This document shows positions 11,587 through 48,281 of a stretch of DNA of 64,000 nucleotides, piece after piece (position 1 is the stretch's first letter; every line of letters starts with the position of its first letter). A program made the translations under genes and the position numbers. Source of the DNA: Actinomycetota bacterium (GTDB taxonomy: Bacteria; Actinomycetota; UBA4738; HRBIN12); contig DATAPH010000060.1 of NCBI GenBank assembly GCA_036265325.1, positions 13,993 through 77,992 of the forward strand, in the 5' to 3' direction. The notes beneath the pieces were generated by a model that saw only the letters and a program-made list of their open reading frames with translations, was not told where the DNA came from and made no database searches.

Positions 11587-11616
11587 GCGCCTGCAGACGC
11601 GAAGGAGGGAAGCGCG

Positions 11617-11976: not shown

Positions 11977-11983
11977 GCGGGCC

Positions 11984-14664: not shown

Positions 14665-14778
14665 GTTCGTCCAGATGATGCCGCCGAGAGCGGGCCGGGG
14701 GAAGGGGTGCAGGCAGGCCGACCGGACGGGGAGAGGACACCCATGGATCGCCTGGGTGCCCGGTGGCGCGTGAGGGGT

Positions 14779-26030: not shown

Positions 26031-26033
26031 GGC

Positions 26034-32303: not shown

Positions 32304-32359
32304 GGCCCCCGAGTCTACGAGCGCGGGTCCGGAGGCAGGACCGCGCATATCCTGGGTGG

Positions 32360-33118: not shown

Positions 33119-33121
33119 CCG

Positions 33122-33904: not shown

Positions 33905-33923
33905 CGGGGCGGATAATACGTCG

Positions 33924-34769
33924 ATGGAGACGCGCCGCATCGTTCTGCAAGGTCGTCCCGTGACGGTGACCCGCGAAGGCGACGAGCTCGTCACCGACGA
34001 CGGCGAGCGCGTCGCGATCGACGCGGGACAGCACCTTCCTCCCACCGAGCCGTCGAAGATCATCTGCGTGCATCTCAACTACGAGAGCCGGCGCGCCGAG
34101 TTCCAGGCGACGCTCGCGGCGGCCCCGACGTATTTCCACAAGCCGGTGAGCGCGCTCAACCATCACGAGGGCGATGTGGTGCGGCCCCCTCGATGCCGCT
34201 ACCTCAACTACGAGGGCGAGATCGCGATCGTGATCGGCCAGCGCACGCTGCATGTCTCGCCCAGCGAGGCCGAACAACGGATCCTCGGCTACACGGTCGC
34301 GAACGATTACGGGTTGCACGACTTCCGCGACACCGATGCGGGCTCGATGCTTCGCGTGAAGGGCTCCGACACGCTGTGTCCGCTCGGACCGGGCCTCGTC
34401 ACCGACTGGGACTTCCGCGGCAAGCAGATCGAGACCCGCGTCAACGGTGAGATCCAACAGGCAGGATCGACCGACGAGATGATCTGGGACATGCCGTATC
34501 TCGTCGCTGACATCGCGCGCACCATCACCCTTGAGCCCGGCGACGTGATCCTCTCGGGCACGCCGGCCAACTCGCGTCCCGTGGAGCCCGGCGACGTGGT
34601 TGAGGTCGAGGTTGAGGGCTTAGGAACGCTGCGGAACACGATCGTCGAGGGTGACGTCGCGGTCCGCGACGATGTCGGCGCGCAGCCGAGCTCCTCCGAA
34701 GAGGTCGAATCGACGGCGTTCGGCGGCGACTGGGAGTTCCGCGGCATCCGTCCGCCCATGAAAACCTGA
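33924..34769 (+). CDS. fumarylacetoacetate hydrolase (FAH) family protein
   Basis: KIICVHLNY, YEGEIAIVIG and DxTxRD-like metal-binding region; 281 aa. Confidence 0.85.
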   Translation: METRRIVLQGRPVTVTREGDELVTDDGERVAIDAGQHLPPTEPSKIICVHLNYESRRAEFQATLAAAPTYFHKPVSALNHHEGDVVRPPRCRYLNYEGEIAIVIGQRTLHVSPSEAEQRILGYTVANDYGLHDFRDTDAGSMLRVKGSDTLCPLGPGLVTDWDFRGKQIETRVNGEIQQAGSTDEMIWDMPYLVADIARTITLEPGDVILSGTPANSRPVEPGDVVEVEVEGLGTLRNTIVEGDVAVRDDVGAQPSSSEEVESTAFGGDWEFRGIRPPMKT

Positions 34770-34810
34770 CCCGGAGTATGCTCGGCCGAGGTAGATAGTT
34801 CGTATCCAAA

Positions 34811-34860
34811 GGAGTCGACCGAGGGAGTCGACCAAGGGAGTCGACCAAGGGAGTCGAGTG
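34811..34860. repeat. 3.8 tandem copies of a 13-bp unit (GGAGTCGACCRAG) immediately upstream of and running into the GTG start of the glutamine-synthetase-like gene
   Basis: Direct reading: ggagtcgaccgag ggagtcgaccaag ggagtcgaccaag ggagtcgagtg. Each unit carries an SD-like GGAG and a GTCGAC palindrome. Confidence 0.85.
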
Positions 34861-36162
34861 GAGACGAACGGAACACGGCTTCGACTGCTGTGGTCGGACA
34901 TCCACGGCATCGAGCGAGGCAAATACCTCTACGGCAACTGGGCGGAGCGTGGACGCGCCAACTTCTGTCTCGCGACCTTCCCGCTCACGTTCGACCGAGA
35001 GATCCTGCCGATCGAAGGGCTTGCCTTCGACGTCGGACTGCCCGACCTCGAAGCGACGATCGAGCCAGACAGCTTGCGGACCGGTTGGGAGCCGGAGACG
35101 ACCGTCGGGATCGGGCGGCTCAGCCGGCTCGACGCGCCGCTCGCCGTCGATCCGCGGCATCTGTTGGAACAAGCCGTCGCCTCGTGGATCGCGCGCGGCC
35201 TCACGCCGCAGATCGCGTTCGAATTCGAGTTCTACTTGTTGCGACCGGATGGCGAGGATGGCTGGCTCCCACTCTCCACGCCGGGCTCACGCGTGTACGG
35301 AACAGGCATGGCCGTCGACCCAGACGGTGTCGTCGCCGAGATCGTCGCTGCGGCTGCTGCGGCCGGTCTGGATGTCGAGGCGTGGTGCACCGAGTTCGAC
35401 GATTCGCAGTTCGAGGTCAACATCCGCTACCGCGACGCCGTCACCGCGGCCGACGACGCGTTCCTGTTCCGCGTGCTTGCGCACGAGATCGCCACGTCGC
35501 GTGGGCATCGCGCCACGTTCATCGGGCGGCCGTTCGCCGAACGCGGTGGCTCGGGTCTGCACGTGAACATCAGCTTCTGGGACGCAGCCGGCACCAACGT
35601 GCTCTACGACCCGAGCGATGCCGAGGGCCTGAGCGATCTGGCGCGGAACTGCATGGCCGGGATGCTGGCCCATCACGAAGGAACGGCGGCGATCCTGGCG
35701 CCGACCGTGAACGCCTACAAGCGCCTGCTGCCCGACATGATGAACGGCTACTGGGCGAACTGGGGGCACGACGATCGCACGGTGGCGATCCGGATCGGTC
35801 CCGACCGGGGTGACTCGACCCGCCTGGAGAACCGTGTGCCCGACGGCGCGTGCAACCCGTACCTCGCGGCTGCGGCCCTGCTCCACGCCTGCCGGTTCGG
35901 CGTCGAGGACGCGATGACGATGCCCCCCGCACAGCCGATCGCGGCGCAGCCGACCGGCGATCACATCCCGGCGACGCTGGAGGCCGCCGTCGAGGCGATG
36001 GGCCGCGACGACCGGCTGTGCGACGCACTCGGGGCGCCGTTCGTCGATGCGTTCTCGCAGCTCAAGCTCGCAGAGTGGAAGCGGTACACGGAAGCGGTGG
36101 ACGATCCGGCCACGTCGGATCCGACGCCGTGGGAGCTCGACTACTACACCCCGTTCTTCTGA
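34858..36162 (+). CDS. glutamine synthetase family protein (type III-like; gamma-glutamyl-amine ligase, PuuA/IpuC-like)
   Basis: GS catalytic-domain motifs (EFEFYL, GSGLHVNISFWD, NPYLAAAA) without the GlnA N-terminal regulatory features; 434 aa; GTG start. Confidence 0.85.
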   Translation: METNGTRLRLLWSDIHGIERGKYLYGNWAERGRANFCLATFPLTFDREILPIEGLAFDVGLPDLEATIEPDSLRTGWEPETTVGIGRLSRLDAPLAVDPRHLLEQAVASWIARGLTPQIAFEFEFYLLRPDGEDGWLPLSTPGSRVYGTGMAVDPDGVVAEIVAAAAAAGLDVEAWCTEFDDSQFEVNIRYRDAVTAADDAFLFRVLAHEIATSRGHRATFIGRPFAERGGSGLHVNISFWDAAGTNVLYDPSDAEGLSDLARNCMAGMLAHHEGTAAILAPTVNAYKRLLPDMMNGYWANWGHDDRTVAIRIGPDRGDSTRLENRVPDGACNPYLAAAALLHACRFGVEDAMTMPPAQPIAAQPTGDHIPATLEAAVEAMGRDDRLCDALGAPFVDAFSQLKLAEWKRYTEAVDDPATSDPTPWELDYYTPFF

Positions 36163-36172
36163 TGGAGCGTTC

Positions 36173-37423
36173 GTGACGGCCGTCCTCGATGGGATCGATC
36201 TGGCCGATCCCGACAACTTCGTCGACGGGGTGCCCTACGACTGGTTCCGGCGACTGCGCGAGGAAGCGCCGGTCGCGTGGCATCCCGAGCCGGGATCGAA
36301 CGCCGGATTCTGGGCGGTCACGCGCTACGACGACCTCGTCGCGATCCACATGGATTGGGCGACGTATTCGTCCGAGGTCGGCGCCGTCTCACTGGAAGAG
36401 CTCGATCCCGAGCAGCTCGAGATCCGGCGGTCCATGCTCGAGACCGACCCGCCACGGCACACGAAGCTCCGGTCGATCTGCGCCAAGCGGTTCAGCGCGC
36501 GCGGGGTGGGGCAGTACGCCGACTGGATCCGAGACGTCGCACGCGAGGTGCTCGATGCGGCGCTGCTGAGCGACGAACCCTTCGACTTCGTCGGCTCGAT
36601 CAGTCGCGAGCTGCCGATCCGGTTCCTATGCTCGATCTTCACCGTGCCGCAAGAAGATGCGCCGCAGCTGATCTCGTGGGGCGACAAAATGATCGCGAAC
36701 CAGGACCATGAGCTGTCCGCCGCGGTCATCGACAAGGTCGACACCGAGGAATACCGACTGCTGCCGTTCCGCTCGCCGGTCGCACGGGACGTGTTCGCGT
36801 ACGCAGATGCGCAGGCCGACGAGCGACGTGCAGAACCGAGCGACGATGTGATCCAGGCGCTCGTCACCGCCCAGAACGAAGGCGTGCTGAACGAGCGCGA
36901 GTTCCACAACTACTTCTCGCTGCTGATGATCGCGGGCAACGAAACGACGCGGCACACGATCAGCGCCGGGATGCTGGCGCTGATGGCGAACCGCGACCAG
37001 ATGCAGCTGTTGACCGACGAGCCCGAGCGCATCCCCCTGGCCGTCGAAGAGATCCTTCGGTGGGCGACGCCGGTGCTGCATTTCCGCCGGACGGCGACCC
37101 GCGACGTCGAGCTGCGTGGGGAGACCATCCACGCTGGCGACAAGGTCGTAACGTGGTACATCAGCGCCAACCGCGACGAGGACGCCTTCGACGAGCCGGG
37201 CGCGTTCGACGTGACGCGCAAGCCGAACGACCACGTCACGTTTGGTCCGGGCGGTCCGCACTTCTGTCTCGGCGCGCACCTGGCACGCCTCGAGGCCACG
37301 ATCCTGTTCGAGGAGCTGCTCCCGCGGATCCGGTCCATCGAGCTCGCCGGCCCGACCGAACGCATCCGCTCGAACTTCGTCAACGGCATCAAGCGGATGC
37401 CGGTGCGGATCGAAACGCGCTAA
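36173..37423 (+). CDS. cytochrome P450
   Basis: Heme-binding loop FGPGGPHFCLGAHLAR, EEILRW (ExxR) and AGNETT I-helix. GTG start 10 nt after the GS-like stop, with GGAG 6 nt upstream. Confidence 0.9.
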   Translation: MTAVLDGIDLADPDNFVDGVPYDWFRRLREEAPVAWHPEPGSNAGFWAVTRYDDLVAIHMDWATYSSEVGAVSLEELDPEQLEIRRSMLETDPPRHTKLRSICAKRFSARGVGQYADWIRDVAREVLDAALLSDEPFDFVGSISRELPIRFLCSIFTVPQEDAPQLISWGDKMIANQDHELSAAVIDKVDTEEYRLLPFRSPVARDVFAYADAQADERRAEPSDDVIQALVTAQNEGVLNEREFHNYFSLLMIAGNETTRHTISAGMLALMANRDQMQLLTDEPERIPLAVEEILRWATPVLHFRRTATRDVELRGETIHAGDKVVTWYISANRDEDAFDEPGAFDVTRKPNDHVTFGPGGPHFCLGAHLARLEATILFEELLPRIRSIELAGPTERIRSNFVNGIKRMPVRIETR

Positions 37424-37923
37424 GACCCGTCGCGGTCCTGGACGCTTCGTGACAACGATCTGAGCAACGACGCCAAACGGTCTTGATCGCGCTCGCCGAG
37501 CGTGCCGGCGATCGCCGTTTCCTCGGCGTTGAATCTCGGGAACAGGTGCTCGATCGTCGTGCGACCGGCCGGGGTGAGCGACACGAGGACACTCCGACCG
37601 TCGTCCGGGTCGGCGCGACGGGCGATCCACCCGCGGGCGTCGAGGGTCCGCAGCACCCCGGTCGCCGTCGGACGGCTGATCCCGACGGCCTCGGCGAACG
37701 CGTTCGCGCCGAGCTCTCCCCAGACCCACAGGACCCAGAGCGCGACGAACCCGGTCCACGACACTCGTTCGGTCGCGAGCACCTTCCCCTCCATATGCCG
37801 GCGAACCGCGGCCGCGCTCCGGAACAGATTCGAGATCGCCCACATCGCGCGGAAGTCCAGCTGCCGGTCGCCGAGCGTCTCCAGAACCTTGCGTTCTGCG
37901 GGCAGCAGGTCGTCCGCGCTCAT
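37420..37923 (-). CDS. MarR family transcriptional regulator
   Basis: Winged-HTH pattern (ISRPTATGVLRTLDARGWIARRADPDDGRS); 167 aa; ATGA-type overlap with the upstream decarboxylase; stop overlaps the convergent P450 stop. Confidence 0.85.
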   Translation of the reverse strand: MSADDLLPAERKVLETLGDRQLDFRAMWAISNLFRSAAAVRRHMEGKVLATERVSWTGFVALWVLWVWGELGANAFAEAVGISRPTATGVLRTLDARGWIARRADPDDGRSVLVSLTPAGRTTIEHLFPRFNAEETAIAGTLGERDQDRLASLLRSLSRSVQDRDGS

Positions 37924-39335
37924 GCCGCGCCCGACATCAGCCGGCCGCCGAGCTCACGGGCAACGTCCAAGATCGCCTCGACGTCTTCATCGGTGGTTCG
38001 GAAGTTCACGAAGCACGGACGGAGCCACACCTCGCCGTCGATCAGCGCCGACGCGAGGTAGATCCGGCCGTCGGACTGGATCGCGTCGGCGAGCCGCTGG
38101 TTGTGCGCATCGACCGCGACGCCCGTTGGCGCATGCCGGAAGGGCACGATCGAGAGCTGCGGAGGAGCTTCGAATACCTCGAAGTCCTCGCTCGACTGCG
38201 CCCGGCGGTAGAGCAGGTCGGCCTCTTCCAGGTTGCGGGCGATCGCGTCGCGGAACTGCTGAGCCCCGTGGGCACGGAAGGCCAGCCACGCCTTGAGCGC
38301 GCGGAACGGCCGCGAGTACTCGAGGGTGATATCGGCAGCGTGCAGTTCGTGCTGCTGGTGGGGGAGATACCCCTGCTCGTGCGAGAACGACTCCTCGAAG
38401 GCATCCCCGTGTCGGCTCATGACGACGCCGCACGCCTTGGGCAGGTAGAGCCATTTATGCGCGTCGACCGAACACGAGTCGGCGCGAGCCAGCCCGGCGA
38501 ACACCTCGGGACGGATCGCCGCGGCCGGAAGTCCGTAGGCGCCGTCGACGTGGAGCCAAACCTCGGCTGCTTCGCAGGCATCCGCGACCGCGTCCAGATC
38601 GTCGACCGCGCCGGTCAAGGTCGTGCCGGCCGACGCCACGACGGCCACGGGCGTCGCGCCGTCGGCTCGGTCGGCTGCGATCGCGTCCGCCAGCAGGTCT
38701 GGGCGCATCCGTCGGAGCGGATCCAGCGGGATCGCACGCAACCGGTCCGACCCGATGCCCAGCAGCTCCACTGCACGGGTCACCGAGTAGTGAACCTCCT
38801 CCGAGCAGTACACGACGGGGCGCTGGCCGCCGAGTCCGGCGTGCCGCGACCCCGGCAACGCGCGTTCGCGCGCGGCCGCCAGCGCCGTCAGGTTGCTGAT
38901 GGTTCCACCGCTGGTGAAGGCGCCCGTCGCCACGGGATACCCGACGAACGATCCGATCCAGCGCACCGCCTGCTGTTCCACAACGGTCGCCGCCCGCGCG
39001 TCGACCGCGAGGTTGATGTCGTACGTGTGCGCGAGCAGGTCGCCGATCGCGCCGATCGGCAGCCCGCTCGACCCGATGAAGGCAAAGTACCGCGGCCGTG
39101 GCTGTGCGATCGATTCGTCCAGGATCCGTGCCGCATCGTCGAGCGCCTCATGGACAGGCACGGGCTCTTCCGGCAATCCCGCCCTGATCAACGCGCGGAC
39201 GCGATCGTCCAGCGGCGGCTCCTCCGGGCGGAACCGGTCGAACGACCCCCATGCTTCTTCGACGAGCCGCGCCGCGTGCGCCAGCGCCTCCTCGCGAGGG
39301 GCGTCGAGGCGCAGCGGCCGCTCGTCGTCGGTCAT
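37920..39335 (-). CDS. PLP-dependent decarboxylase (group II pyridoxal-dependent decarboxylase family)
   Basis: SVDAHKWLYLPKACG (PLP-Lys) and HVDGAYG. Start at MTDDERP; the track fuses this ORF with the upstream permease frame. Confidence 0.85.
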   Translation of the reverse strand: MTDDERPLRLDAPREEALAHAARLVEEAWGSFDRFRPEEPPLDDRVRALIRAGLPEEPVPVHEALDDAARILDESIAQPRPRYFAFIGSSGLPIGAIGDLLAHTYDINLAVDARAATVVEQQAVRWIGSFVGYPVATGAFTSGGTISNLTALAAARERALPGSRHAGLGGQRPVVYCSEEVHYSVTRAVELLGIGSDRLRAIPLDPLRRMRPDLLADAIAADRADGATPVAVVASAGTTLTGAVDDLDAVADACEAAEVWLHVDGAYGLPAAAIRPEVFAGLARADSCSVDAHKWLYLPKACGVVMSRHGDAFEESFSHEQGYLPHQQHELHAADITLEYSRPFRALKAWLAFRAHGAQQFRDAIARNLEEADLLYRRAQSSEDFEVFEAPPQLSIVPFRHAPTGVAVDAHNQRLADAIQSDGRIYLASALIDGEVWLRPCFVNFRTTDEDVEAILDVARELGGRLMSGAA

Positions 39336-40873
39336 CCGATCCCTTCCGCGCGCACGCCGGCCGGATTGATCCCGTCCGCCTCGTCGGAGCGGAGCTCGTC
39401 GAGGACGCTGCTCGCCGGCGCCCGTCCCTTCATCACGAACGCGACGATCAGGCCGAGGACCGCCCACACCGCGACGTACTCCCAGACCAGGTTGAACGGC
39501 GACGGCTGCTTGTAGATTCCGCCGAAGACGGCGGCGACCGAGATCGCGACGCCGATCAGCGCCGCGATCACGACGCCGACGTAGTTCGCGCCCTCGCGCA
39601 AGCCCCAGAACGAGCCCAGCGCGAGGAGCCCGTAGACGACCATCAGCGCGAACCCACCGAACGTCGACAGCCACAGGAACATGTCGAAGAAGTGCGGGCT
39701 CGGGCTCGCGCTCGCGAACACCGAGTCTGCGAACTGCGCGATGCCGACCATGATCAGCGACACCGCCTCGACGAAAATGATCGCCGCGACCGGCGTGCCA
39801 CGGCGATGAGCGACCGCCGCCAGGCCGCCCGGGATCCGCCGGTCGCGCGCCAACGCGAACACGCCGCGTGCGGACGCGACCGCCGCACCCAGTCCAACCG
39901 CGAGGATGTCGAGGAGCACCACGACCTCGAGCACCTTCAGGATGAAGTCCGAGCCGTACCCTCCTGCCGCCGTCGGTGATCCGAGTGCGAACAACGGCGC
40001 GGCGGCGACGGCGGGATCGGTGATGACGGAGAGGTCTTGCCCGAACCCGACGATCTGCGCGTAGGCCGCGATCAGGTAGAACACCGTCGCGATCAACACC
40101 GTGTACAGCACCGCGCGAGGGATCGACCGCTTCGGCTCGGCCGTTTCTTCCCCCAGGTTCGCCGCCGTCTCGAACCCGACGAAGATCAACACGCCGTACA
40201 GGACGCCGAACATGATGCCGCTCCATCCGTCCGCGGCCGAGCTCGGCTTGAACGGCTCGAGGTTCGTGTTCGGCGCATCCACGATCACCTTGACGAAGAA
40301 CGCGAGCACCACGACGGCCGACGCGAGCGCCAGTGTCAGCTGCGCCCGGGTCGAGATGTGAACGCCGAGGTACTGCACCAGGAACACCGCCGCGACGAAG
40401 ATGAGGCTCCAGCCCCACATCGGCAAGGGCGACGTGGACGAAAGCACGCCCGGAACCGCCGGGTCGACGGTGAAGATCACGTCGTGGACGTACCAGCCGA
40501 CCAGGCACGCGATCGCCGACGCCAGGACCGTGGTGCCGCCGTAGTAGATCCAACCGGCGAACGCGCCCGCTCGGCCGCCCAGACCGTTCGACACGTAGTC
40601 GTAGAGCGAGCCAGCCGCGTGTACCCGCTTCGCATACTGCGCGACGATCCAGCCGAGCGCGAACGTCCCGATCGCCGCGAGCAGCACGGCGAGCGGCGTC
40701 GCAACACCCGCGCCCTTGCCCGACGCGCTCACTCCCGCGATCAGCGGGATCAGGAACGCCGCCGAGAACACGGGTCCCATGAACCCGACCGATTGCGAGA
40801 TGCAGTCCACCAGCCGAAGCCGCTTCGCGCCGAGGCGCTCGTAGCCCAGCTTCTCCTCCGGCATGTCCGCCAT
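39332..40873 (-). CDS. APC superfamily amino acid / polyamine permease
   Basis: Twelve predicted TM helices with APC-type consensus (GSGIF-like region GKGAGVATP, FVGFE). ATG of MADMPEEKL is preceded by GGGAGAGGGGGA. Overlaps the decarboxylase start by 4 nt. Confidence 0.85.
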   Translation of the reverse strand: MADMPEEKLGYERLGAKRLRLVDCISQSVGFMGPVFSAAFLIPLIAGVSASGKGAGVATPLAVLLAAIGTFALGWIVAQYAKRVHAAGSLYDYVSNGLGGRAGAFAGWIYYGGTTVLASAIACLVGWYVHDVIFTVDPAVPGVLSSTSPLPMWGWSLIFVAAVFLVQYLGVHISTRAQLTLALASAVVVLAFFVKVIVDAPNTNLEPFKPSSAADGWSGIMFGVLYGVLIFVGFETAANLGEETAEPKRSIPRAVLYTVLIATVFYLIAAYAQIVGFGQDLSVITDPAVAAAPLFALGSPTAAGGYGSDFILKVLEVVVLLDILAVGLGAAVASARGVFALARDRRIPGGLAAVAHRRGTPVAAIIFVEAVSLIMVGIAQFADSVFASASPSPHFFDMFLWLSTFGGFALMVVYGLLALGSFWGLREGANYVGVVIAALIGVAISVAAVFGGIYKQPSPFNLVWEYVAVWAVLGLIVAFVMKGRAPASSVLDELRSDEADGINPAGVRAEGIG

Positions 40874-40893
40874 GGAGTCCCCCTCTCCCGCCG

Positions 40894-41787
40894 CTAGGCG
40901 GCCGCGTCCGTCCACCCTTCCGCGGGACGCTCGAACCACACGTGCACCTGCCCGGTGCCGACCGATGCCTCGTATTCGCTGAATAGCTCGCCCGGCGCAC
41001 GACACTCGGCGCCGCCCATCGCCGCGGCCATCATCAGGTAGTGACCGAAATGGCCCTCGGGGTAGGCCTTCCGGTAGGTCGGCATGTTGTCGATCACGCC
41101 GGCGTGGTCGCCCTTCTGCATCAGCTCGAGCACGCGCATGTCGGCGTCGTAGTACGCGCGATCGTAGATGTTGTCCGGCGCCCGCTGGGCCTCACGCTGC
41201 CGGAGCTCCTTGAACCCGAAGAACCGGTGCGTCATGCCGCCCGAGGCGAGCAACACAACACGGCGGTCGCTCTCGGCGATCGCCTGCCCGATCAGCGACC
41301 CGAGCAGCAGGAAGTCGTCGGTGTCGCAGCATTGGTTGAGCGCGACACTCAGCCAGCTCGTGTCGGGGTCGCCGAGGAACGACCAGATGTTGACTGTGCC
41401 GTAGAAGATCGGCAGGTACGGGTCGTCGGACGCGAGGATCCAACAGTCGTCACGGCCCTCGGCCTGCGCGGCGATCCGCTTCGCGAGGTCAGGGTCGCCC
41501 GGCATGTCGTACGGGATCTGGCGCATGCCCCGTGGGAGCTCGCTGCTCGTGAACAGGCCCTGTCGCCGGTCCTGTGCGGTCACGATGTGCTCGAACGTCG
41601 ACTCCCAGTGTGTGTCGAAGACGATCACCGTGTCCGGCTTCAGCCGATCGATGCACTCGCTCTTCATCCGTTGCAGGCCTGGGACCAGGGAGATCTCCTT
41701 GCCGTCGTTGAGCTCGAGCCGGACGTCCTCCGGCAGCATGATCGTCGGAACGTGCGCGACCAGCGCCGCGCCCACCACCTCACCCAT
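40894..41787 (-). CDS. class III extradiol ring-cleavage dioxygenase (LigB / AmnB family catalytic subunit)
   Basis: N-terminal VVGAALVAHVPTIM, and H..W..H.. metal ligands (DTHWES, GGMTHRF) typical of the LigB superfamily. Confidence 0.8.
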   Translation of the reverse strand: MGEVVGAALVAHVPTIMLPEDVRLELNDGKEISLVPGLQRMKSECIDRLKPDTVIVFDTHWESTFEHIVTAQDRRQGLFTSSELPRGMRQIPYDMPGDPDLAKRIAAQAEGRDDCWILASDDPYLPIFYGTVNIWSFLGDPDTSWLSVALNQCCDTDDFLLLGSLIGQAIAESDRRVVLLASGGMTHRFFGFKELRQREAQRAPDNIYDRAYYDADMRVLELMQKGDHAGVIDNMPTYRKAYPEGHFGHYLMMAAAMGGAECRAPGELFSEYEASVGTGQVHVWFERPAEGWTDAAA

Positions 41788-41796
41788 CAGTCCTCC

Positions 41797-43317
41797 TCAC
41801 CCGCCGGACGGCGGCGCTGTCACGACGTTCTTCACGTCTGCGTAGAAGTCGAAGCTCCAGCGACCCCCCTCGCGGCCGATCCCTGAGTTTCGCGACCCGC
41901 CGAACGGCGCGTCGAGATCGCGCACGAAGAAGCAGTTGACCCACACAGTGCCGGCGACGAGCTGCTCGCCGACCCGTCGCGCGCGCGCCTCGTCGCCCGT
42001 GTAGACGGTCGCGGCCAGGCCGTAATCGGTGCTGTTGGCGAGCTCGATCGCCTCCGCCTCGTCACGGAACGGCTGCGCCGTCAGCACGGGTCCGAAGATC
42101 TCCCGCGTCAACAGCGGCGAGCCATCCGGCACATCGACGAAGACGGTCGGCCGGTAATAGAGCCCGCCGAGATCCTCGTTCGGACCGCCTCCGACGAGCG
42201 CCCTCGACCCTTCGTCGTGTCCGGCCCGGACGAACCCGTCGACGCGCTCGAAGTGTTCGCGGCTGATGAGCGGCCCGATGTCGGTCGGCTCGTTGCGAGG
42301 GTCGCCGACGACAACGCGGGCCGCTACCTCAGCGAGACGTTCGAGGAAGTCGTCGTAGATCGAGGACTCGATCAAGAGACGGGTACCGGCAAGGCAGACC
42401 TGGCCCGCGTTGTCGAACTGGCCGACCGCCTGGTTCAGCGCCGCGCCCCGGTCCGCGTCGGCGAAGATCAAGAATGGCGACTTGCCGCCGAGCTCGAGGG
42501 ACGTCGGGGTGAGGTTCTGGGCCGCCGCCGCAGCGACGAACCTCCCCGTTTCGACCGATCCGGTGAACGCGATCCGGCTCACGCCAGGGTGGGCGACCAG
42601 AGCCGCGCCCGCCTCCTCACCGATCCCTTGGACGACGTTGTAGGCGCCGGCGGGGAGTCCGGCGTCGAGCGCGATATCGCCGAGCAGCGACGCGGTGAGC
42701 GGCGCCCACTCCGGCGGCTTGTGTACGACGGCGTTCCCGGCGGCGAGCGCCGGCGCGATCCGCCACGTTGCAAGCATCAGCGGCGCGTTCCACGGTCCGA
42801 TCACCGCGGTGACGCCCGACGGATCCCACGTGAATCGCTCGCGGTTGCCGTTGAAGGTCGCGTCCCCTTCCGCCTCGATCTCGAGCAACTTGTCGGCGAA
42901 GAACCGGAAGTTGCGTGCGACCCGAGGCATCACCGACCGGCGGTGCGACCGGAGGAGCGATCCGTTGTCGCGCGTTTCAACGACCGAGATCTCTTCGACC
43001 CTGGCCTCGACGCCGTCGGCGATCCGGTGCAGAACGGCAGCGCGGTCCTTCGGCGGCGTGCGTCCCCATCCGCGGGCGGCGTGATCCGCCGAGGCGACCG
43101 CGAGATCGACGGTGTCTGCATCGCCGCGTGCAACCTCGGCGATGACCTGTTCGTCGATCGGCGAGACGTCCGAGAACCGTTGCTGCGAACCGAGGCGTTC
43201 GCCGCCAACCAGATGGTCGGTCGAGACCTCGACCCCTTCGACCACGGCGCGCTCGTCCGTTGGCTCCTCCAGATGGTTCGTATCCGAACGGTATGGCTGG
43301 AGGCTTTGCGCTGTCAA
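41797..43317 (-). CDS. NAD(P)-dependent aldehyde dehydrogenase (semialdehyde dehydrogenase-like)
   Basis: ELGGKSP, catalytic FDNAGQVCLAGTRL (Cys) and GSVETG motifs; 506 aa. Confidence 0.9.
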   Translation of the reverse strand: MTAQSLQPYRSDTNHLEEPTDERAVVEGVEVSTDHLVGGERLGSQQRFSDVSPIDEQVIAEVARGDADTVDLAVASADHAARGWGRTPPKDRAAVLHRIADGVEARVEEISVVETRDNGSLLRSHRRSVMPRVARNFRFFADKLLEIEAEGDATFNGNRERFTWDPSGVTAVIGPWNAPLMLATWRIAPALAAGNAVVHKPPEWAPLTASLLGDIALDAGLPAGAYNVVQGIGEEAGAALVAHPGVSRIAFTGSVETGRFVAAAAAQNLTPTSLELGGKSPFLIFADADRGAALNQAVGQFDNAGQVCLAGTRLLIESSIYDDFLERLAEVAARVVVGDPRNEPTDIGPLISREHFERVDGFVRAGHDEGSRALVGGGPNEDLGGLYYRPTVFVDVPDGSPLLTREIFGPVLTAQPFRDEAEAIELANSTDYGLAATVYTGDEARARRVGEQLVAGTVWVNCFFVRDLDAPFGGSRNSGIGREGGRWSFDFYADVKNVVTAPPSGG

Positions 43318-43338
43318 TCCGAGCGCGTGGAGGCTCGG

Positions 43339-43575
43339 CTAACGCTTGCGCAGCGCCCTGATCAGGGGTCGCCCGAGCCTGTAGACGGTGTAGGCGAGGA
43401 GAAGCAGCCCGAGGATCGCCTCGATCTGTTCCTCATCGAAACGCGTTCGCTTGGCGATCGGCTTCGCGATCGCTCGTCCAACCGACCCGCGCCAACCGGT
43501 GAGCGCTGCCTCGCCGACCTGTACGACCGCGCCGTGCTGCTGTCCGTTATCTGCCATATCGCAGCGGTTCCCCAC
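43339..43575 (-). CDS. small hypothetical protein with C-terminal hydrophobic helix
   Basis: 78-aa ORF lying 22 nt upstream of the ALDH gene on the same strand. AILGLLLLAYTVY is a possible membrane anchor. Coding evidence is weak. Confidence 0.35.
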   Translation of the reverse strand: MGNRCDMADNGQQHGAVVQVGEAALTGWRGSVGRAIAKPIAKRTRFDEEQIEAILGLLLLAYTVYRLGRPLIRALRKR

Positions 43576-43612: not shown

Positions 43613-45556
43613 TCATCGGCGGCCCGCCATCTGCCGCGCGAACGCGAGCGGTGACGAGGCGGTCAGGTCGATCGCCGGCTCCGTGTTGTCGTAGGACTGC
43701 ATGTTGTCCTGGAACTGTGCACCGCTGCCGTTGAACGGTGCGTACGTGTCCGCGCCGTTGGCGGGACACGCGACCATCCCCGAGACGGCGCCGTGCGTCG
43801 GGGATGAATTCGGGCCCTCGACCGCCGCCCCGGCGAGCACCGGGGAGCCACCGGTCAACGAGCCGGCGAGATTCGCCACCTGATGCTGCAGACACTTGGG
43901 GTACGTCGAACCGTCGCCGACGATGAACGACAAGCCCCACGCGTTCGCGCCGAGGATGTTCGCGAGCCAGCGGTCCGCGTACACCGCGTAGGTGTTCGTT
44001 CCCGATAGCTGGTCGTACTCGCTGGCCTGAATCGACAGGCCGGCTCCGTGCGTTGTCGTGTCCCACGCGGCCCACGTGAACCCGAATCCGAACGGGTCCG
44101 TGCCGGCCTGTGCGACGGCCCCGTCCAACGCCTTCTTCATGTCTGCGAGCAGGGCCGCCTGCGTGGTCTCGAGCCCGGACGGGTTCCCTGCCGTCGCGAT
44201 CGCGCGGTACAGCTCATAGTGCGCGAGGCCCGACACGTCGTATAGGTTGAGCGTGTCGGCCGCGTCTTCGGGTCCCGTGATGTAGGCGTTCGCCCAGTGC
44301 GCCGCCTTCTGCAGGTAGAACATCGGATCGGTGTGCGGTAGTCCGGCCGGGAGCCCACCCGAGGCGATCGCTGAATACAGCTCGGTCGCGCCGAGCTCCA
44401 TGTCGTCACGCCATTCGGTCTCCGGGTAGAAGCTGAACGGGATCACCGTCATCAGGTTGCCGGTCGGGGCTGTGTTCGCGAGGTCGAAGATGTGCTCGGC
44501 CGAGAGCAGGCATCGGTTCGCGAACGCCGGGTCCGACGTCTTGAACACGACGAAGCACTCCGCGAATGCGGCCGCGTCCCGGCCCGCGAGGTTGGGGCTG
44601 ATCAGCGACCCTGGCGGCCCCGCCCGGAACACCGGCCGGTTGCGGATGTACCGGTACACCGAGTTGGTCCCCTGGTACGTGTCGTCGGCCTGCGGAAGCC
44701 GCCAGATGTCGTGGTCGCCGAGCGTCTTCGCGTTCCCGGTGCCGATGCCGACCTGGTAGTAGAGCGTCTGCGTCGTGTCGTTCCACATCCGCATCAACCA
44801 GTCGGTGCCGAACTTCGCCTCCGCGGTGTAGTTCGACGAGCCCGACGCCATCTGCGCCGGGAAGTCCCGCACGCCCGCGAGCAGCAGCGCATCGGTGTAG
44901 CTCGTGGTCTGGACGAACTTGAGGTAGTCGCCCGCATCCCACCAGCCACCCGAGGCATCCATCCGCGTCCCGAGCGGCGACAGATCGCCCGAGAACCGTC
45001 CCGAGCCGGCGTTGTATGCCGGCGTGGTGTACGTCATCGCCGTCTGATCGTTGAGGTGCGCCGGCGCTGTGCGGAGCGCCGACGGGATGTAGTTCGCACC
45101 ATCACGCTGAACCTGGAAGAAGTTGAGCCCGTTGGCCTCGGCGCCGCTGTAGATGTTGGTGCCGGTATCGATCTTGAACGACGGTGACGTGGCCGCGATC
45201 GGTCCGGCGACGGCGATCGTGTAGGTGCCGGCGGTCGTCACCGACGGGAAGTCGAGGGCGTATACATGGCTCAGCGACGAGCTCCACGAGCCGAGGTCCG
45301 CGCCGATCGGCCCGGAGAACACCGTCGTCGAGCCGCTCTTCACCGCGAACGTCGCGCCGGTCTCGACGCCGGAGGACAGCAGGTAGGCCCGCTTCGACGC
45401 CGCGTCGACGGGATAGCCGAGCTGGTTGACCCGAACGTATGCGCTCGACCCGTTGGTCGGCGCAGACGGTTTTCCGGCGATGGCCGGCGCCTGCGCACCG
45501 ATCAGGATCGCCGCCAGGGACACCACCGACGCGGTCGCAAGTCGCCCGAGCTTCAT
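43613..45556 (-). CDS. secreted glycoside hydrolase, family 9-like endoglucanase with N-terminal Ig-like (CelD_N-type) domain
   Basis: Signal peptide MKLGRLATASVVSLAAILIGAQAPAIAG follows RBS GGGAGGA. GGWWDAGDYLKF resembles the GH9 catalytic-region signature. Confidence 0.65.
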   Translation of the reverse strand: MKLGRLATASVVSLAAILIGAQAPAIAGKPSAPTNGSSAYVRVNQLGYPVDAASKRAYLLSSGVETGATFAVKSGSTTVFSGPIGADLGSWSSSLSHVYALDFPSVTTAGTYTIAVAGPIAATSPSFKIDTGTNIYSGAEANGLNFFQVQRDGANYIPSALRTAPAHLNDQTAMTYTTPAYNAGSGRFSGDLSPLGTRMDASGGWWDAGDYLKFVQTTSYTDALLLAGVRDFPAQMASGSSNYTAEAKFGTDWLMRMWNDTTQTLYYQVGIGTGNAKTLGDHDIWRLPQADDTYQGTNSVYRYIRNRPVFRAGPPGSLISPNLAGRDAAAFAECFVVFKTSDPAFANRCLLSAEHIFDLANTAPTGNLMTVIPFSFYPETEWRDDMELGATELYSAIASGGLPAGLPHTDPMFYLQKAAHWANAYITGPEDAADTLNLYDVSGLAHYELYRAIATAGNPSGLETTQAALLADMKKALDGAVAQAGTDPFGFGFTWAAWDTTTHGAGLSIQASEYDQLSGTNTYAVYADRWLANILGANAWGLSFIVGDGSTYPKCLQHQVANLAGSLTGGSPVLAGAAVEGPNSSPTHGAVSGMVACPANGADTYAPFNGSGAQFQDNMQSYDNTEPAIDLTASSPLAFARQMAGRR

Positions 45557-45628
45557 GCCTGTCCTCCCTCTTAGAACGGCGTGATCGCTCGACGCTAGCA
45601 CCGGTCCGCGACTCGAGCCACCCGGGCT

Positions 45629-47023
45629 TTAGGCGGAGGGCATCTTTCCGAGCGCGTCGTAGGCCGCGTACTTGAACGTCTCGCTCAGCGTTGGGTGGTT
45701 GAACACCATCTGGATGAACGTCTCGACGGTGCCCTCAAGCGTGATCACGGCCTGACCAACGTGGACCAGCTCCGACGCGCGCTCGCCGATCACGTGGCAC
45801 CCGATCAGCCGGCGGTTGGAGCGGTCGAACACGAGCTTCACCATGCCGTCACGATCGCCGACGATCTGTCCGCGAACGTTGTCGGCGAACCGCGCGCGGC
45901 CGACGACCGTGTCGGTGCCTCGCTTGATGGCTTCGTCCTCGCTCAGGCCGACGCAGCTCACCTCGGGGATCGTGTAGACACCGTACGGGTAGAGCTCCGC
46001 GACCTGCCGCTTGTACGTGAAGCCGAACACGTGGCACACAGCCACGCGCGCCTGTTCCATCGAGACGCTCGCGAGCGCGGGGAACCCCACGACGTCGCCG
46101 GCCGCGTAGATGTTCGGCACCGCGGTTCGAAAGTCCTCGTCTACGACGACGTAGCCGCGGCGATCCACTTCAACACCGATCTCCTCGAGCCCGAGCCCCG
46201 CGGTGTTCCCGCTCCGCCCCGACGCGACGAGGACGCCATCGGCCTCGATCTCGGCGCCGGAGGTCAGCGTCGTCACGAGCACACCGTTGTCTCGGGCGAC
46301 ATGGTCGAGTTTCCGCTCGAGGTGCAGATGCACGCCGAGCGCGGTCATCGCGTCGGCGAGCCGTTCGCCCATCTCCGCGTCGAGGAACGGCAGTAACGCC
46401 GGCCGCGGATCGATCAGATGCACCTCGACGCCGAGCGCGGCGAACATGCACGCGTACTCGCAGCCGATGACGCCGCCGCCGATCACCACAAGCTTCGTCG
46501 GGAGGTGGTCGATCTGCAAGATCCCGTCGGCGTCGTGCACGCCCTCGTCTTCGTACGGGATGCCGGCTGGCCGATGCGGCGACGATCCCGTGACGAGGAG
46601 CACGTACTCGGCTCCGAGGCGGCGCTCGGGTTGGTCAACTTGGTTGACGAGTACCTCGTGAGGGCTTGCGAGGCGTCCGATCCCTCGGATCAACTCGATC
46701 TTGTGGCGCTCGAGGTTCGCGTGGATCCGTTGCGTCTCGAGGCGTTCCACGACGTTCTTGCGCCCGAGCAGTCGGGCGACGGTGAGGTCAGGGTCGACAT
46801 GCACGTTGACGCCGTACATATCGCGCTGGTGATAGCCCGAGAGGAACAGTCCTGCTTCTCGAAGCGTCTTGGACGGAAGTGTGCCGGTATGAACCGCGGC
46901 GCCACCAGGCTCGGGCTGGCGTTCGATCAGGGCGACCCGCTTACCGAAGTACGCGGCCTGGGCGGCGCCGCGCTCGCCGGCCGGGCCGCCGCCGATCACC
47001 ACGAGATCGAACCGCTCGGTCAC
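45629..47023 (-). CDS. soluble pyridine nucleotide transhydrogenase-like flavoprotein (SthA / class I pyridine nucleotide-disulfide oxidoreductase family)
   Basis: FAD motif VVIGGGPAG, NAD motif VVIGGGVIGCE and C-terminal dimerisation domain. Lacks the CxxxxC redox disulfide, as SthA-type enzymes do. GTG start. Confidence 0.75.
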   Translation of the reverse strand: MTERFDLVVIGGGPAGERGAAQAAYFGKRVALIERQPEPGGAAVHTGTLPSKTLREAGLFLSGYHQRDMYGVNVHVDPDLTVARLLGRKNVVERLETQRIHANLERHKIELIRGIGRLASPHEVLVNQVDQPERRLGAEYVLLVTGSSPHRPAGIPYEDEGVHDADGILQIDHLPTKLVVIGGGVIGCEYACMFAALGVEVHLIDPRPALLPFLDAEMGERLADAMTALGVHLHLERKLDHVARDNGVLVTTLTSGAEIEADGVLVASGRSGNTAGLGLEEIGVEVDRRGYVVVDEDFRTAVPNIYAAGDVVGFPALASVSMEQARVAVCHVFGFTYKRQVAELYPYGVYTIPEVSCVGLSEDEAIKRGTDTVVGRARFADNVRGQIVGDRDGMVKLVFDRSNRRLIGCHVIGERASELVHVGQAVITLEGTVETFIQMVFNHPTLSETFKYAAYDALGKMPSA

Positions 47024-47036
47024 CCCCCGAGCCTAG

Positions 47037-48281
47037 TCAGGAGCAGCGGGGTGGGACCCAGAACGGTGTCCGCTGCGCTGCGCTGCGCAACGACGTTTGC
47101 ACGGCGGCGAGCGCGGGCGTCGGCTGCATCTTGTCGTCGAACGGCAGCGGCCGACGGGGGGCGCCGTCCGATCGCGGGTAGTCCTCTTGAAGCCAGGTGT
47201 ACCGGTCAGACAGGCCGAAGGTCATCAGCGCGGCGATGTCGGGCTCCTGGAGCGCGGCGTTCAGATACGTCGAGTAGACGCTCGCGACCGCATCGTCGCG
47301 CTTCTGCTGGTCGGCGGGCAAACCGTCGTCGAGCACGTCCATCTCGGTGATCAAGATCTTCAAGCCTCGCTGGGCGACGTCGGAAAGGAACGTCCGGTAC
47401 GCGTCTGCGTCGAATCTCTCCGCAAACCGTGCGGCGTGCAGGTGCGCCTGGATGCCAAGCGCGTGGACCGGCACGCCCTGCGAAAGCAGCCCGTCCAGCA
47501 CATCGAGCGTGGCGGCGCGCTTGTCCGCCGCGGTGTCTGCGCCGAGGTCGGTCTCGTACCCGTAGTCGTTGTACACGAGTAGCGCCGTTGGATCCGCCGC
47601 CTGGGCCCACGTGAACGCGTCCGCGATGTAGTCCGGGCCGATCGTCGAATACCACGGGACGTTGGTGCGGACGCCGTTCGTATCGATCGCCTCGTTCACC
47701 ACGCTCCAGGCGGCGACCTTGCCTTGGTAGCGGCTCACGACGGCGTCGATGGTCGAGTGGATCAGATGCGTGGCCTTCTCGTGGCTCATGCTCCAGAGGT
47801 CGTCGTCGGTCCAGCCGTCGCCGAACCCTTCGTCCCAAACGAGATGCGCGCCGAACACCAGCATGCCGTTGCGGTTCGCGAGATCGATGATCCGGTCGCC
47901 GAACGTGAAGTCCAGGCCGGACTGCGGTGTCGGGCGGAGCCGCCACCAGAGCAGGTCGTCCTCGGTGAACAAAATGCCCGCTTCCTGTTCGAACAGCGAT
48001 CGGTACTGAGCGTCCGAGAGTTGCCAGGTCGCAGCCGAGGACCCGTAGACGAGGCCGTTGGTGAGCGCCTGCTTCCACAGTGGCGCCGAGGCATCGGCGT
48101 CCGTGAGGCAATCGACCGGGCCGGGCGATACGGAAGGAAGCACCGCCTGCGCCAACGCCGGCCCGGCGCTCGAGGATGTCCCGTCGTCGGTTGACCGGGT
48201 GCAAGCGGCGAGCACCGCCGTCGCGGATCCGGCGGCCGCCAGCAAGAATCCTCGCCTGGTGATCGCGGTATCGAGTCGCAT
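47037..48281 (-). CDS. endo-1,4-beta-xylanase, glycoside hydrolase family 10 (Tat/lipoprotein signal)
   Basis: Twin-arginine ITRRGFLLAAAG and lipobox LAAC; catalytic WSVVNEA (acid/base) and ILITEMDV (nucleophile) motifs. AGGAGG precedes the ATG. Confidence 0.85.
   Translation of the reverse strand: MRLDTAITRRGFLLAAAGSATAVLAACTRSTDDGTSSSAGPALAQAVLPSVSPGPVDCLTDADASAPLWKQALTNGLVYGSSAATWQLSDAQYRSLFEQEAGILFTEDDLLWWRLRPTPQSGLDFTFGDRIIDLANRNGMLVFGAHLVWDEGFGDGWTDDDLWSMSHEKATHLIHSTIDAVVSRYQGKVAAWSVVNEAIDTNGVRTNVPWYSTIGPDYIADAFTWAQAADPTALLVYNDYGYETDLGADTAADKRAATLDVLDGLLSQGVPVHALGIQAHLHAARFAERFDADAYRTFLSDVAQRGLKILITEMDVLDDGLPADQQKRDDAVASVYSTYLNAALQEPDIAALMTFGLSDRYTWLQEDYPRSDGAPRRPLPFDDKMQPTPALAAVQTSLRSAAQRTPFWVPPRCS

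Follow-up and report, generated by a model that had tools for sequence, protein, structure and literature searches.

The window analysed here is a 64-kb stretch of DNA with a G+C content of about 68% from an uncultured soil member of the Actinomycetota, whose nearest public sequences are metagenome-assembled genomes carrying the label 'Actinomycetota bacterium'. Bordered by an Lhr helicase gene on one side and a GH9 cellulase gene on the other, an island of genes in this window combines a LigB-type extradiol dioxygenase and an aldehyde dehydrogenase (ALDH) with an amino acid permease, a pyridoxal phosphate (PLP)-dependent decarboxylase, a glutamine synthetase (GS)-like ligase and a cytochrome P450. 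This island is the subject of the present work, and we argue that it may encode a single catabolic pathway for an aromatic amino acid and its amine.

Six open reading frames (ORFs), all with a coding-type G+C pattern, run on the minus strand between 37420 and 43575. The first is a small ORF with a hydrophobic C-terminal segment (43339-43575 with a GTG start, 78 aa, or 43339-43557 with an ATG start, 72 aa). It is followed after 21 nt by an HpaE-like ALDH gene (41797-43317; Pfam Aldedh, 506 bits), of the type of NAD(P)-dependent ring-fission semialdehyde dehydrogenases, and after a further 9 nt by the gene of the class III, LigB-type extradiol dioxygenase (40894-41787), whose Pfam LigB match of 94 bits (cut-off 26.3) spans residues 7-285 of 297. 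Next come, after 20 nt, an APC-superfamily amino acid/amine permease (39332-40873; AA_permease, 109 bits), a group II PLP decarboxylase that we call DC1 (37920-39335; Pyridoxal_deC, 194 bits), which shares a 4-nt ATGA overlap with the permease gene and is translationally coupled to it, and finally a MarR-family regulator (37420-37923; MarR, 52 bits), which overlaps DC1 by 4 nt. The six tightly spaced, co-directional genes of the earlier sequence-only reading are thus confirmed, with gaps of 9-21 nt, two 4-nt overlaps and strong Pfam matches.

The MarR gene lies tail to tail, with an overlap of 4 nt, with a plus-strand operon composed of a fumarylacetoacetate hydrolase (FAH)-family, HpaG-like decarboxylase/isomerase (33924-34769; FAA_hydrolase, 193 bits), a GS-like glutamate-amine ligase of the gamma-glutamyl-amide synthetase type (34858-36162; Gln-synt_C, 279 bits) and the P450 (36173-37423; p450, 86 bits; the ORF is open from 36047, and the GTG at 36173 is the probable start). 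Divergent from the FAH gene is the minus-strand gene of an acetoacetate decarboxylase (ADC)-superfamily, MppR/Sbi00515-like protein, which we propose to be a hydratase-aldolase (33122-33904; ADC, 183 bits; ORF open to 34078). It is followed by a plus-strand gene for a PuuD-like C26 gamma-glutamyl hydrolase (32360-33118; Peptidase_C26, 178 bits) and, divergent from the latter, by DC2, a second group II PLP decarboxylase of 489 aa (30879-32348, minus strand; Pyridoxal_deC, 159 bits), whose membership in the island is uncertain. The functional unit would therefore be 32360-43575, possibly beginning at 30879. The sequence-only reading was right that an operon lies here, but its limits of 37920 and 43575 were too narrow, since the MarR gene extends to 37420 and the unit reaches 32360 or 30879.

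The LigB protein belongs, judging from its sequence, to a subfamily apart from canonical HpaD. It scores 143.7 bits on the HpaD equivalog model (HpaD_Fe, TIGR02298), below the cut-off of 315.95, and its orthologues from Streptomyces canus and Novosphingobium stay below it as well (127 and 130 bits). The closest solved structure is 8iq8, the homoprotocatechuate dioxygenase (DHPAO) of Acinetobacter baumannii (1.9e-21), and the second tier is formed by the 2-aminophenol 1,6-dioxygenase subunits AmnB (7e-14) and AmnA (8e-9). Residues H12, H60, H187 and E244, which by comparison with LigAB we take to be the putative iron ligands (two His and Glu) and the catalytic His, are unchanged across 18 orthologues and align with their counterparts in 8iq8. 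The sequence-only reading had offered DOPA/dopamine-like or aminophenol-like compounds (DOPA, 3,4-dihydroxyphenylalanine) as ring substrates; the former proposal is supported, while the latter is disfavoured by the single LigB gene, which has no AmnA-like partner, and by HpaD being the best relative. Database names for this subfamily (orthologues P0001, L097 and L100) deserve a comment: the NCBI pipeline labels its members 'catechol 1,2-dioxygenase', an intradiol name that is surely wrong for a LigB-type enzyme, the JGI label '3,4-dihydroxyphenylacetate 2,3-dioxygenase' is doubtful, and neither name reaches the score of a curated model.

The other putative ring-fission proteins show a similar relation to the homoprotocatechuate pathway. 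The top NCBIfam model of the ALDH is HpaE (512 bits, cut-off 638), that of the FAH-family protein is the C-terminal HpaG model (193 bits, cut-off 276), and that of the MarR regulator is HpaR (42 bits, cut-off 121). The ADC-family protein matches MppR (4jm3) over its full length (2e-58) and Sbi00515 with 2e-46, and the Schiff-base Lys156 of MppR aligns with a PKK motif of the window protein, which scores 211.7 bits on the MppR equivalog (TIGR04460) and so stays below the cut-off of 380. Rather than decarboxylating, MppR and Sbi00515 carry out hydration/dehydration and aldol reactions whose substrates are 2-oxo-4-hydroxy or 2-oxo-3-enoic acids, that of MppR being a 4-hydroxy-2-oxo acid which bears a nitrogenous tail.

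As to the amine-handling proteins, the closest solved structure to DC1 is 4obu (8e-58, 200 bits), which we take to be the tryptophan decarboxylase of Ruminococcus gnavus, followed by the DOPA decarboxylase 7xin (5e-48, 168 bits); a diaminobutyrate decarboxylase structure matches with 146 bits. DC1 reaches no curated NCBIfam equivalog and also scores on diaminobutyrate and aspartate decarboxylase models, and the automatic JGI annotation of its orthologues is aromatic-L-amino-acid decarboxylase. Its translation contains the PLP lysine (DAHKW), the stacking histidine (EEVHYS) and the catalytic-loop tyrosine (GYLPH). DC1 is therefore probably aromatic amino acid decarboxylase-like, with its substrate judged from relative similarity only. 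The idea that the permease and the decarboxylase feed an aromatic amine to LigB and ALDH, put forward in the sequence-only reading, is supported in so far as all the computational tests made here agree with it; for DC1 in particular, the nearest relatives are aromatic amino acid decarboxylases. In plant and insect enzymes a retained catalytic-loop tyrosine speaks for a true decarboxylase and not for an aldehyde synthase; because DC1 keeps this tyrosine we read it as a true decarboxylase, and a role as aldehyde synthase, which would lead from DOPA via ALDH to homoprotocatechuate, was rejected, the active-site histidine being kept as well. DC2 is about 30% identical to DC1, its weak top matches are diaminobutyrate and aspartate decarboxylase models, and tblastn found no orthologue of it in any of the 80 related loci described below.

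No N-terminal GS domain was detected by Pfam in the GS-like ligase. It scores 222 bits on the gamma-glutamylputrescine synthetase model, for which the cut-off is 650, and is 31% identical to the annotated IpuC of Paenarthrobacter aurescens TC1. The P450 carries the Cys-ligand motif FGPGGPHFCLG, and its closest solved relatives are CYP125, CYP126 and CYP124. The top NCBIfam model of the C26 hydrolase is gamma-glutamyl-GABA hydrolase (PuuD; GABA, gamma-aminobutyric acid), with 89 bits against a cut-off of 266.

The conservation of the island was followed in 80 loci of uncultured Actinomycetota with a LigB orthologue (68-94% identity), onto which the window proteins were mapped by tblastn, as gene calls based on third-position G+C mis-framed some genes; locus counts refer to the 50 loci having 10 kb downstream of LigB. 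An ALDH orthologue adjoins LigB in 48 of the 50, and orthologues of DC1 (38/50, median identity 77%), the APC permease (37/50), the P450 (37/50, median identity 76%) and MarR (36/50) are found in most of them, with the GS-like ligase present in 28 (median identity 58%). FAH and ADC-family orthologues were counted in 11 and 9 loci, both numbers being limited by the 10-kb reach. The related genomes repeat the arrangement ALDH-LigB-transporter-DC1-MarR facing P450-GS-FAH/ADC at 55-90% amino acid identity, and most of the set is found again in about 40 of the 50, which speaks against genes that are neighbours merely by chance. The small ORF, which has no Pfam or NCBIfam match, is kept only in the three closest relatives (L008, L009 and L012; 82-94%); because its substitutions are mostly synonymous third-position changes we count it as a real gene, which is lineage-specific and no general part of the cluster.

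The upstream aminotransferase IV, peptidase M1 and PALP genes are conserved too, so that part of the conservation is vertical synteny. Nevertheless, shared ancestry as the sole cause of this synteny was rejected, because the cluster recurs with other flanks, as seen when locus L088 is compared with the window, and in other phyla. The gamma-glutamyl/P450 module that the sequence-only reading saw as an adjacent part of one island is real, and its membership in this island is supported: the two halves of the island are linked across about 40 species-level genomes, with other flanks in L088, and in Streptomyces, Embleya and Novosphingobium. In L088 the ALDH-LigB-MarR genes are followed by P450, by an M20 amidohydrolase and by the GS-like gene, and L038 carries an identical trio. 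L092 has a Liv-type ABC transporter instead of the APC permease between LigB and DC1, and L094 has an extra FAH-family gene, Rv2993c-like, after the ADC gene.

Several loci depart from this arrangement. L009, the closest relative on a long contig (LigB 93%), has the permease, DC1, MarR and P450 genes split into several frames at 10915-15700, with ALDH, LigB, GS-like, FAH, ADC and C26 intact around the broken segment, which represents either a local long-read assembly error or decay. L005, L022-L028 and L090 are without the DC1-MarR-P450 block; they keep ALDH-LigB-APC followed by an F420/LLM-type oxidoreductase, and in the region about 3-9 kb downstream of LigB they possess another GS-like gene (about 31%) together with two SDRs and a gene of the CMD family, frequently joined by a second P450 (about 28%). 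These loci look like a parallel variant of the same theme. A second P450 and a MetE-like (Meth_synt_2) protein recur in L088 (18046-19260 and 15852-17009), L091 (18380-20696) and L093 (15120-17437); in L091 and L093 the two genes are direct neighbours, in L088 they lie on opposite strands with about 1 kb between them, and we know of no function for this pairing.

The stronger evidence comes from replicons of cultured bacteria. The window P450, GS-like, LigB and ADC-family proteins were searched in 72,556 plasmid records, the first two by tblastn. P450 and GS-like genes were found as neighbours in several unrelated bacteria, and four loci with the whole core are described here. On the plasmid of Streptomyces canus NBC_00633 an APC permease, an F420-dependent LLM oxidoreductase, a ferredoxin, a second P450, a TetR regulator, FAH, LigB, ALDH, the ADC-family enzyme, a ferredoxin reductase and another ferredoxin face the GS-like and P450 genes, and transposase and integrase genes follow. 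Plasmid pABRDHK22 of Novosphingobium sp. EMRT-2 carries MarR, LigB, P450, GS-like, ALDH, ADC-family, FAH, a second ALDH and a 2Fe-2S ferredoxin. In Embleya sp. NBC_00896 a ferredoxin reductase, FAH, LigB and ALDH face a second ALDH and C26, followed by MarR and the ADC-family gene, which face GS-like and P450. Plasmid pSLUN1 of Streptomyces lunaelactis MM109 has a PLP decarboxylase, FAH, LigB and ALDH facing a second ALDH and C26, then the ADC-family gene and MarR, facing the GS-like gene and an amino acid permease, without a P450. The clusters occupy 48.6-62.2 kb on the S. canus plasmid, 201-212 kb on pABRDHK22 and 63.6-76.6 kb on pSLUN1. The LigB/ADC core was also counted on two Embleya replicons.

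Identity to the window proteins at these loci is highest for FAH (70-72%), followed by the ADC-family enzyme (55-58%), LigB (49-54%), ALDH (48-63%), P450 (43-52%) and the GS-like ligase (33-40%); MarR orthologues of 48-50% occur in the S. lunaelactis and Embleya clusters, and a MarR-family gene is annotated in the Novosphingobium cluster. The LigB matches among the plasmids are bimodal: five records at 49-55%, all with the cluster, and canonical hpaD at 28-32%. ADC matches of at least 54% are confined to the same five records, and a GS-like gene is near in all five. The LigB of Sphingobium TomTYG64 is 40% identical and lies in a classical-looking cluster that lacks a GS-like gene and encodes the hpcH aldolase and the hpcG hydratase; the ADC-family enzyme thus appears to travel with glutamylation. 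Taken together, the co-travelling of the LigB subfamily, the ADC subfamily and the GS-like ligase in two phyla, often on mobile replicons, is good evidence, at the level of gene content, for a single pathway.

Other components of these clusters are exchangeable. Transporters and decarboxylases are replaced by non-orthologous ones in the same position (L092, S. lunaelactis, S. canus), and the hydrolase varies as well, being C26 in the window's clade and M20 in another. In S. lunaelactis the top models of the decarboxylase are tyrosine decarboxylase, that of the second ALDH is PuuC (554 bits) and that of the hydrolase is gamma-glutamyl-GABA hydrolase; there and in Embleya the second ALDH gene lies directly upstream of the C26 hydrolase gene. 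Redox partners are present in the S. canus cluster (ferredoxin and reductase), in Embleya (reductase) and in Novosphingobium (2Fe-2S ferredoxin). P450 orthologues (43-52%) adjoin the GS-like gene in Embleya, S. canus, Novosphingobium, Ruegeria, Tritonibacter and Sagittula. Sagittula stellata E-37 (L098) has a GS-amidotransferase-P450 operon, and on the megaplasmid of Ruegeria sp. TM1040 (L095, 6487-14680) GntR, amidotransferase, P450 and GS-like genes lie directly beside paaABCD and a 2Fe-2S protein gene, an arrangement that hints at a glutamylation route from phenylethylamine to phenylacetate catabolism in roseobacters.

On this basis, we consider the chances evenly balanced that the island is one catabolic pathway which degrades an aromatic amino acid by way of its amine, keeping a gamma-glutamyl amide through ring fission. 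The steps, as far as they can be read from the predicted proteins, would be the following. The APC permease would take up tyrosine or DOPA, or the amine itself, and DC1 would decarboxylate the amino acid to tyramine or dopamine, which the GS-like ligase would join to glutamate at the expense of ATP, giving gamma-glutamyl-tyramine or gamma-glutamyl-dopamine. The P450 would convert the gamma-glutamyl monophenol to the catechol, a step that would be dispensable for a catechol substrate. LigB would then open the ring next to the side chain, ALDH would oxidise the resulting semialdehyde, and the FAH-family protein would perform tautomerisation and decarboxylation. The MppR-like ADC-family enzyme, using its Schiff-base Lys, would hydrate and cleave the 2-oxo acid to pyruvate and gamma-glutamyl-4-aminobutanal. 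An ALDH would oxidise the latter to gamma-glutamyl-GABA, from which the PuuD-like C26 hydrolase would free GABA, the glutamate being recovered. The carbon skeleton is followed here by analogy with homoprotocatechuate, so that where the classical pathway yields pyruvate and succinic semialdehyde, this one would yield pyruvate and glutamyl-capped 4-aminobutanal. The MarR protein would repress the operon until a pathway intermediate builds up.

The proposed purpose of the glutamyl cap is to block the condensation of the free amine with the ring-fission aldehyde. Uncapped cleavage products of DOPA and dopamine cyclise in this manner to betalamic-acid-like or pyrroline products, and lincomycin-type biosyntheses make use of such cyclisation. 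In plants the spontaneous ring closure through the amine yields betalamic acid and decarboxy analogues (PMC11376341, PMC11926856). The scheme gives a role to every catalytic gene in 32360-43317. As dehydrogenases of the HpaE type also accept the downstream aldehyde of the classical pathway as a substrate (PMC12718150), the single ALDH of the window could serve twice. The set of genes in S. lunaelactis, with its tyrosine decarboxylase-like, PuuC-like and PuuD-like proteins and permease and without a P450, matches the scheme for a catechol substrate, and the pair of second ALDH and C26 hydrolase in Embleya fits the predicted late steps as well.

It is quite possible, if a little short of probable, that this constitutes an undescribed route: the complete mineralisation of tyramine or dopamine, derived from tyrosine or DOPA, with the glutamyl cap kept through P450 hydroxylation and ring fission, the capped intermediates being processed by a dedicated LigB subfamily and by an MppR-like enzyme in the role of hydratase-aldolase. 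Such a route would join polyamine catabolism at the level of gamma-glutamyl-4-aminobutanal; it would be widely distributed in a lineage of uncultured soil actinobacteria, and mobile through plasmids of Streptomyces and sphingomonads.

Several observations weigh against this proposal. The substrate of DC1 is assigned on 200 bits to tryptophan decarboxylase versus 146 to diaminobutyrate decarboxylase, and the closest solved relatives of the P450 include aliphatic omega-hydroxylases (CYP124/125) and not aromatic hydroxylases. The island of the window contains no ferredoxin or ferredoxin reductase gene and no tautomerase (CHMI-like) gene. The C26 gene is within reach in only 2 of the 50 related loci, the closest relatives L008 and L009, and no hydrolase is present in the S. 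canus and Novosphingobium clusters. Moreover, the conserved neighbours in the relatives include genes that have no role in the scheme, namely the F420-dependent LLM oxidoreductase, the SDRs and the CMD-family protein, and likewise the second GS-like gene and the second P450 with the MetE-like protein.

One could argue that glutamylation and the P450 serve to strip off the amine: the carbon beside the amide nitrogen would be hydroxylated, releasing glutamine and an arylacetaldehyde, which ALDH would oxidise to (3,4-di)hydroxyphenylacetate, and the ordinary homoprotocatechuate pathway (LigB, ALDH, FAH, ADC-family) would then lead to pyruvate and succinic semialdehyde. The best characterised kin of LigB, ALDH, FAH and MarR are indeed HpaD, HpaE, HpaG and HpaR; these Hpa-like enzymes, however, all stay far under the equivalog cut-offs, the dioxygenase with 127-144 against 316 bits in three lineages. 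The position of the Ruegeria GS-like/P450/amidotransferase genes beside paaABCD would fit a conversion of phenylethylamine to phenylacetate, and two ALDH genes are found in the Novosphingobium cluster. In contrast, S. lunaelactis has the GS-like gene and the full ring-cleavage set without a P450 and would thus have no means of amine loss, and its second ALDH and hydrolase resemble PuuC and PuuD. With dopamine as the substrate no further ring hydroxylase is required, but with tyramine one would be missing. Additionally, replacement of the classical hydratase and aldolase by the MppR-like enzyme is confined to clusters that have a GS-like gene. Thus amine removal before ring fission is unlikely, although it is the alternative that survives best.

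It could also be that two unrelated neighbours are seen here, namely an Ipu/Puu-like unit for an aliphatic amine or diamine (permease, decarboxylase, GS-like, P450, C26) and a separate homoprotocatechuate-type unit (LigB, ALDH, FAH, ADC-family). The stand-alone GS-like/P450/amidotransferase modules of Sagittula and Ruegeria, the likeness of the P450 to aliphatic hydroxylases and the scores of DC1 on the diaminobutyrate and aspartate decarboxylase models are in line with this explanation, and 9 of the 50 loci have only ALDH-LigB-APC within 10 kb. These triad-only loci, however, have another GS-like gene 3-7 kb off. In the window the genes of the two supposed units are interleaved, with FAH and ADC beside GS and P450, and DC1 and the permease within the LigB operon, and the LigB subfamily, the ADC subfamily and a GS-like gene occur together in 5/5 plasmid records from two phyla. 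We therefore regard two independent modules as improbable.

A ring-bound arylamine such as 4-aminophenol or aniline, glutamylated and then oxygenated as in the degradation of aniline and 1-naphthylamine but by a P450 in place of the Rieske dioxygenase, is a very improbable substrate. The set of GS-like enzyme, amidotransferase-like hydrolase and oxygenase does follow the logic of aniline dioxygenases (PMC11335346), and the 2-aminophenol 1,6-dioxygenase beta subunits are the second-best solved relatives of LigB. On the other hand, a decarboxylase, which would have no role for arylamines, was recruited twice independently (DC1 and the tyrosine decarboxylase-like protein of S. lunaelactis), neither an AmnA-like second subunit nor a Rieske oxygenase accompanies the genes, and the GS-like ligase is nearer to true GS and methylamine ligases than to 8wwu, a 510-aa chain of lower rank (101 bits) that may be NpaA1.

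Extradiol cleavage of DOPA or dopamine also supplies the lincomycin and pyrrolobenzodiazepine pathways. A biosynthetic cluster making a ring-cleaved DOPA or dopamine building block, e.g. a pigment or heterocycle precursor, is nevertheless hardly to be expected here, for although such cleavage supplies betalain-type pigments (PMC11376341, PMC11926856), a nonribosomal peptide synthetase (NRPS) gene is found about 12 kb away from the cluster of S. lunaelactis and MppR itself is biosynthetic, the permease, the MarR repressor and the PuuC/PuuD-like and HpaE/HpaG-like lower-pathway enzymes indicate full breakdown, no NRPS or polyketide synthase accompanies the cluster in the window, the 80 related loci, S. 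canus, Embleya or Novosphingobium, and an amine cap would prevent the very cyclisation which those biosyntheses exploit.

No other aromatic catabolic genes were found outside the island among the annotated genes of the window, the remainder of which consists of ordinary signalling, transport and glycoside hydrolase genes. Directly beside the island, on the minus strand at 43613-48281, GH9 and GH10 genes enclose a pyridine nucleotide-disulfide oxidoreductase gene, and a GH106-like rhamnosidase gene with sugar ABC transporter genes lies at 53795-57424 on the same strand; these flanking glycoside hydrolases suggest a plant-polymer-degrading lifestyle. The minus-strand gene at 21697-26562 encodes a signalling protein of very large size, in which a zinc ribbon is combined with adenylate/guanylate cyclase and AAA ATPase domains and TPR repeats, and cyclase/AAA ATPase/TPR proteins of similar architecture stand directly upstream of ALDH in L090 and L091. 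When the sequence upstream of ALDH was compared with both divergent intergenic regions for a shared MarR operator, only chance-level 11-mers were returned. A scan for sigma-70 promoters and terminators stayed at the level of shuffled sequence, as is expected at such a G+C content, and neither the island nor the window as a whole gave a match to Rfam or in a tRNA scan.

Biogenic amines and plant allelochemicals such as tyramine, dopamine and DOPA are common, and in the textbook bacterial route their nitrogen is removed first by an amine oxidase, after which the Hpa pathway follows. If our proposal is true, aromatic catabolism would gain a new logic, in which the nitrogen is protected by glutamate and carried through ring fission. 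A distinct LigB subfamily would acquire a physiological role and MppR-like ADC-superfamily enzymes their first catabolic one, the family of GS-like 'organic amide synthetases' would be widened, and the use of aromatic amino acids by an abundant uncultured soil actinobacterial lineage would be explained; in all, three enzyme subfamilies that lack an assigned role would receive one. The orthologous clusters in cultured strains (S. lunaelactis MM109, S. canus NBC_00633, Embleya and Novosphingobium EMRT-2) make the idea directly testable. We found no published description of this cluster in the full-text literature, whose coverage leaves out most subscription journals, and the only pathway for which the literature covered mentions gamma-glutamyltyramine is methanofuran/methylofuran biosynthesis, where it is a precursor, the remaining mentions being metabolomics lists. 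The cluster combines known kinds, i.e. meta-cleavage pathways and gamma-glutamyl amine pathways, and prior work may exist.

Among these known systems, the Hpa/Hpc pathway of E. coli and A. baumannii shares with the island a class III LigB dioxygenase, a semialdehyde dehydrogenase, a FAH-family decarboxylase/isomerase and a MarR-type regulator, and it ends in pyruvate and a C4 aldehyde. However, the four Hpa-like proteins of the window do not reach their equivalog models, LigB shares no more than about 30% identity with canonical HpaD, and HpaBC, HpaF, HpaH and HpaI are absent among the annotated genes of the window, which has an MppR-like ADC-family enzyme instead and ties the pathway to a decarboxylase and a glutamate-amine ligase. 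MppR and Sbi00515 of Streptomyces resemble this ADC-family protein over its full length, with the Schiff-base Lys kept, but the context in the window is catabolic, without enduracididine genes, and the score remains below the MppR equivalog. AmnAB consists of two homologous LigB-type subunits, in contrast to the one LigB gene of the window.

Glutamylation of an aromatic amine has two kinds of precedent. In aniline and 1-naphthylamine systems, glutamylation by a GS-like enzyme is the prerequisite for oxygenation, an amidotransferase-like hydrolase takes part, and the product goes on to meta or ortho cleavage (PMC11335346). AtdA1-A5, TdnQ/T and NpaA1-A5 thus share with our scheme the glutamylation of an aromatic amine by a GS-like enzyme, but their Rieske dioxygenase removes the nitrogen while forming the catechol, whereas the window has a P450 and the side-chain nitrogen is proposed to stay capped through fission; neither the island nor the remaining annotated genes of the window include a Rieske oxygenase. 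In methanofuran/methylofuran biosynthesis the tyrosine decarboxylase MfnA is followed by MfnD, which joins tyramine to the gamma-carboxyl of glutamate to give gamma-glutamyltyramine (PMC8141765, PMC11365854). There the product is built into a cofactor and not degraded, and DC1 reaches 88 bits on the MfnA model, for which the cut-off is 299. Ligases of the MfnD type are ATP-grasp enzymes and not GS-like.

The lower part of the proposed route resembles the Puu pathway, by which E. coli degrades putrescine (PuuP, PuuA, PuuB, PuuC, PuuD), in its APC-type importer, GS-like ligase, aldehyde dehydrogenase and C26 hydrolase, and the proposed late intermediates gamma-glutamyl-4-aminobutanal and gamma-glutamyl-GABA are Puu intermediates, the substrates of PuuC and PuuD. 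In contrast to Puu, the island has no PuuB-like oxidase, the aldehyde would arise from aromatic ring fission and not from diamine oxidation, and the window proteins score below the equivalogs (222 versus 650 bits for the PuuA type, 362 versus 850 for PuuC and 89 versus 266 for PuuD). The Ipu isopropylamine pathway employs a permease and the GS-like IpuC, its P450 acts on the gamma-glutamyl amide, and a hydrolase resembling amidotransferases completes the set (PMC6776027). The Ipu substrate is a small aliphatic amine that undergoes no ring cleavage, the GS-like ligase of the window is only 31% identical to the annotated IpuC, and Ipu clusters have their own ferredoxin and reductase, both of which the island of the window lacks. 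Nevertheless, the GS-like, P450, hydrolase and permease types of the Ipu clusters of Pseudomonas sp. KIE171 and Paenarthrobacter aurescens TC1 are all present in the window between 32360 and 40873, and Ipu is thus the closest precedent for the trio of GS-like ligase, P450 and C26 hydrolase.

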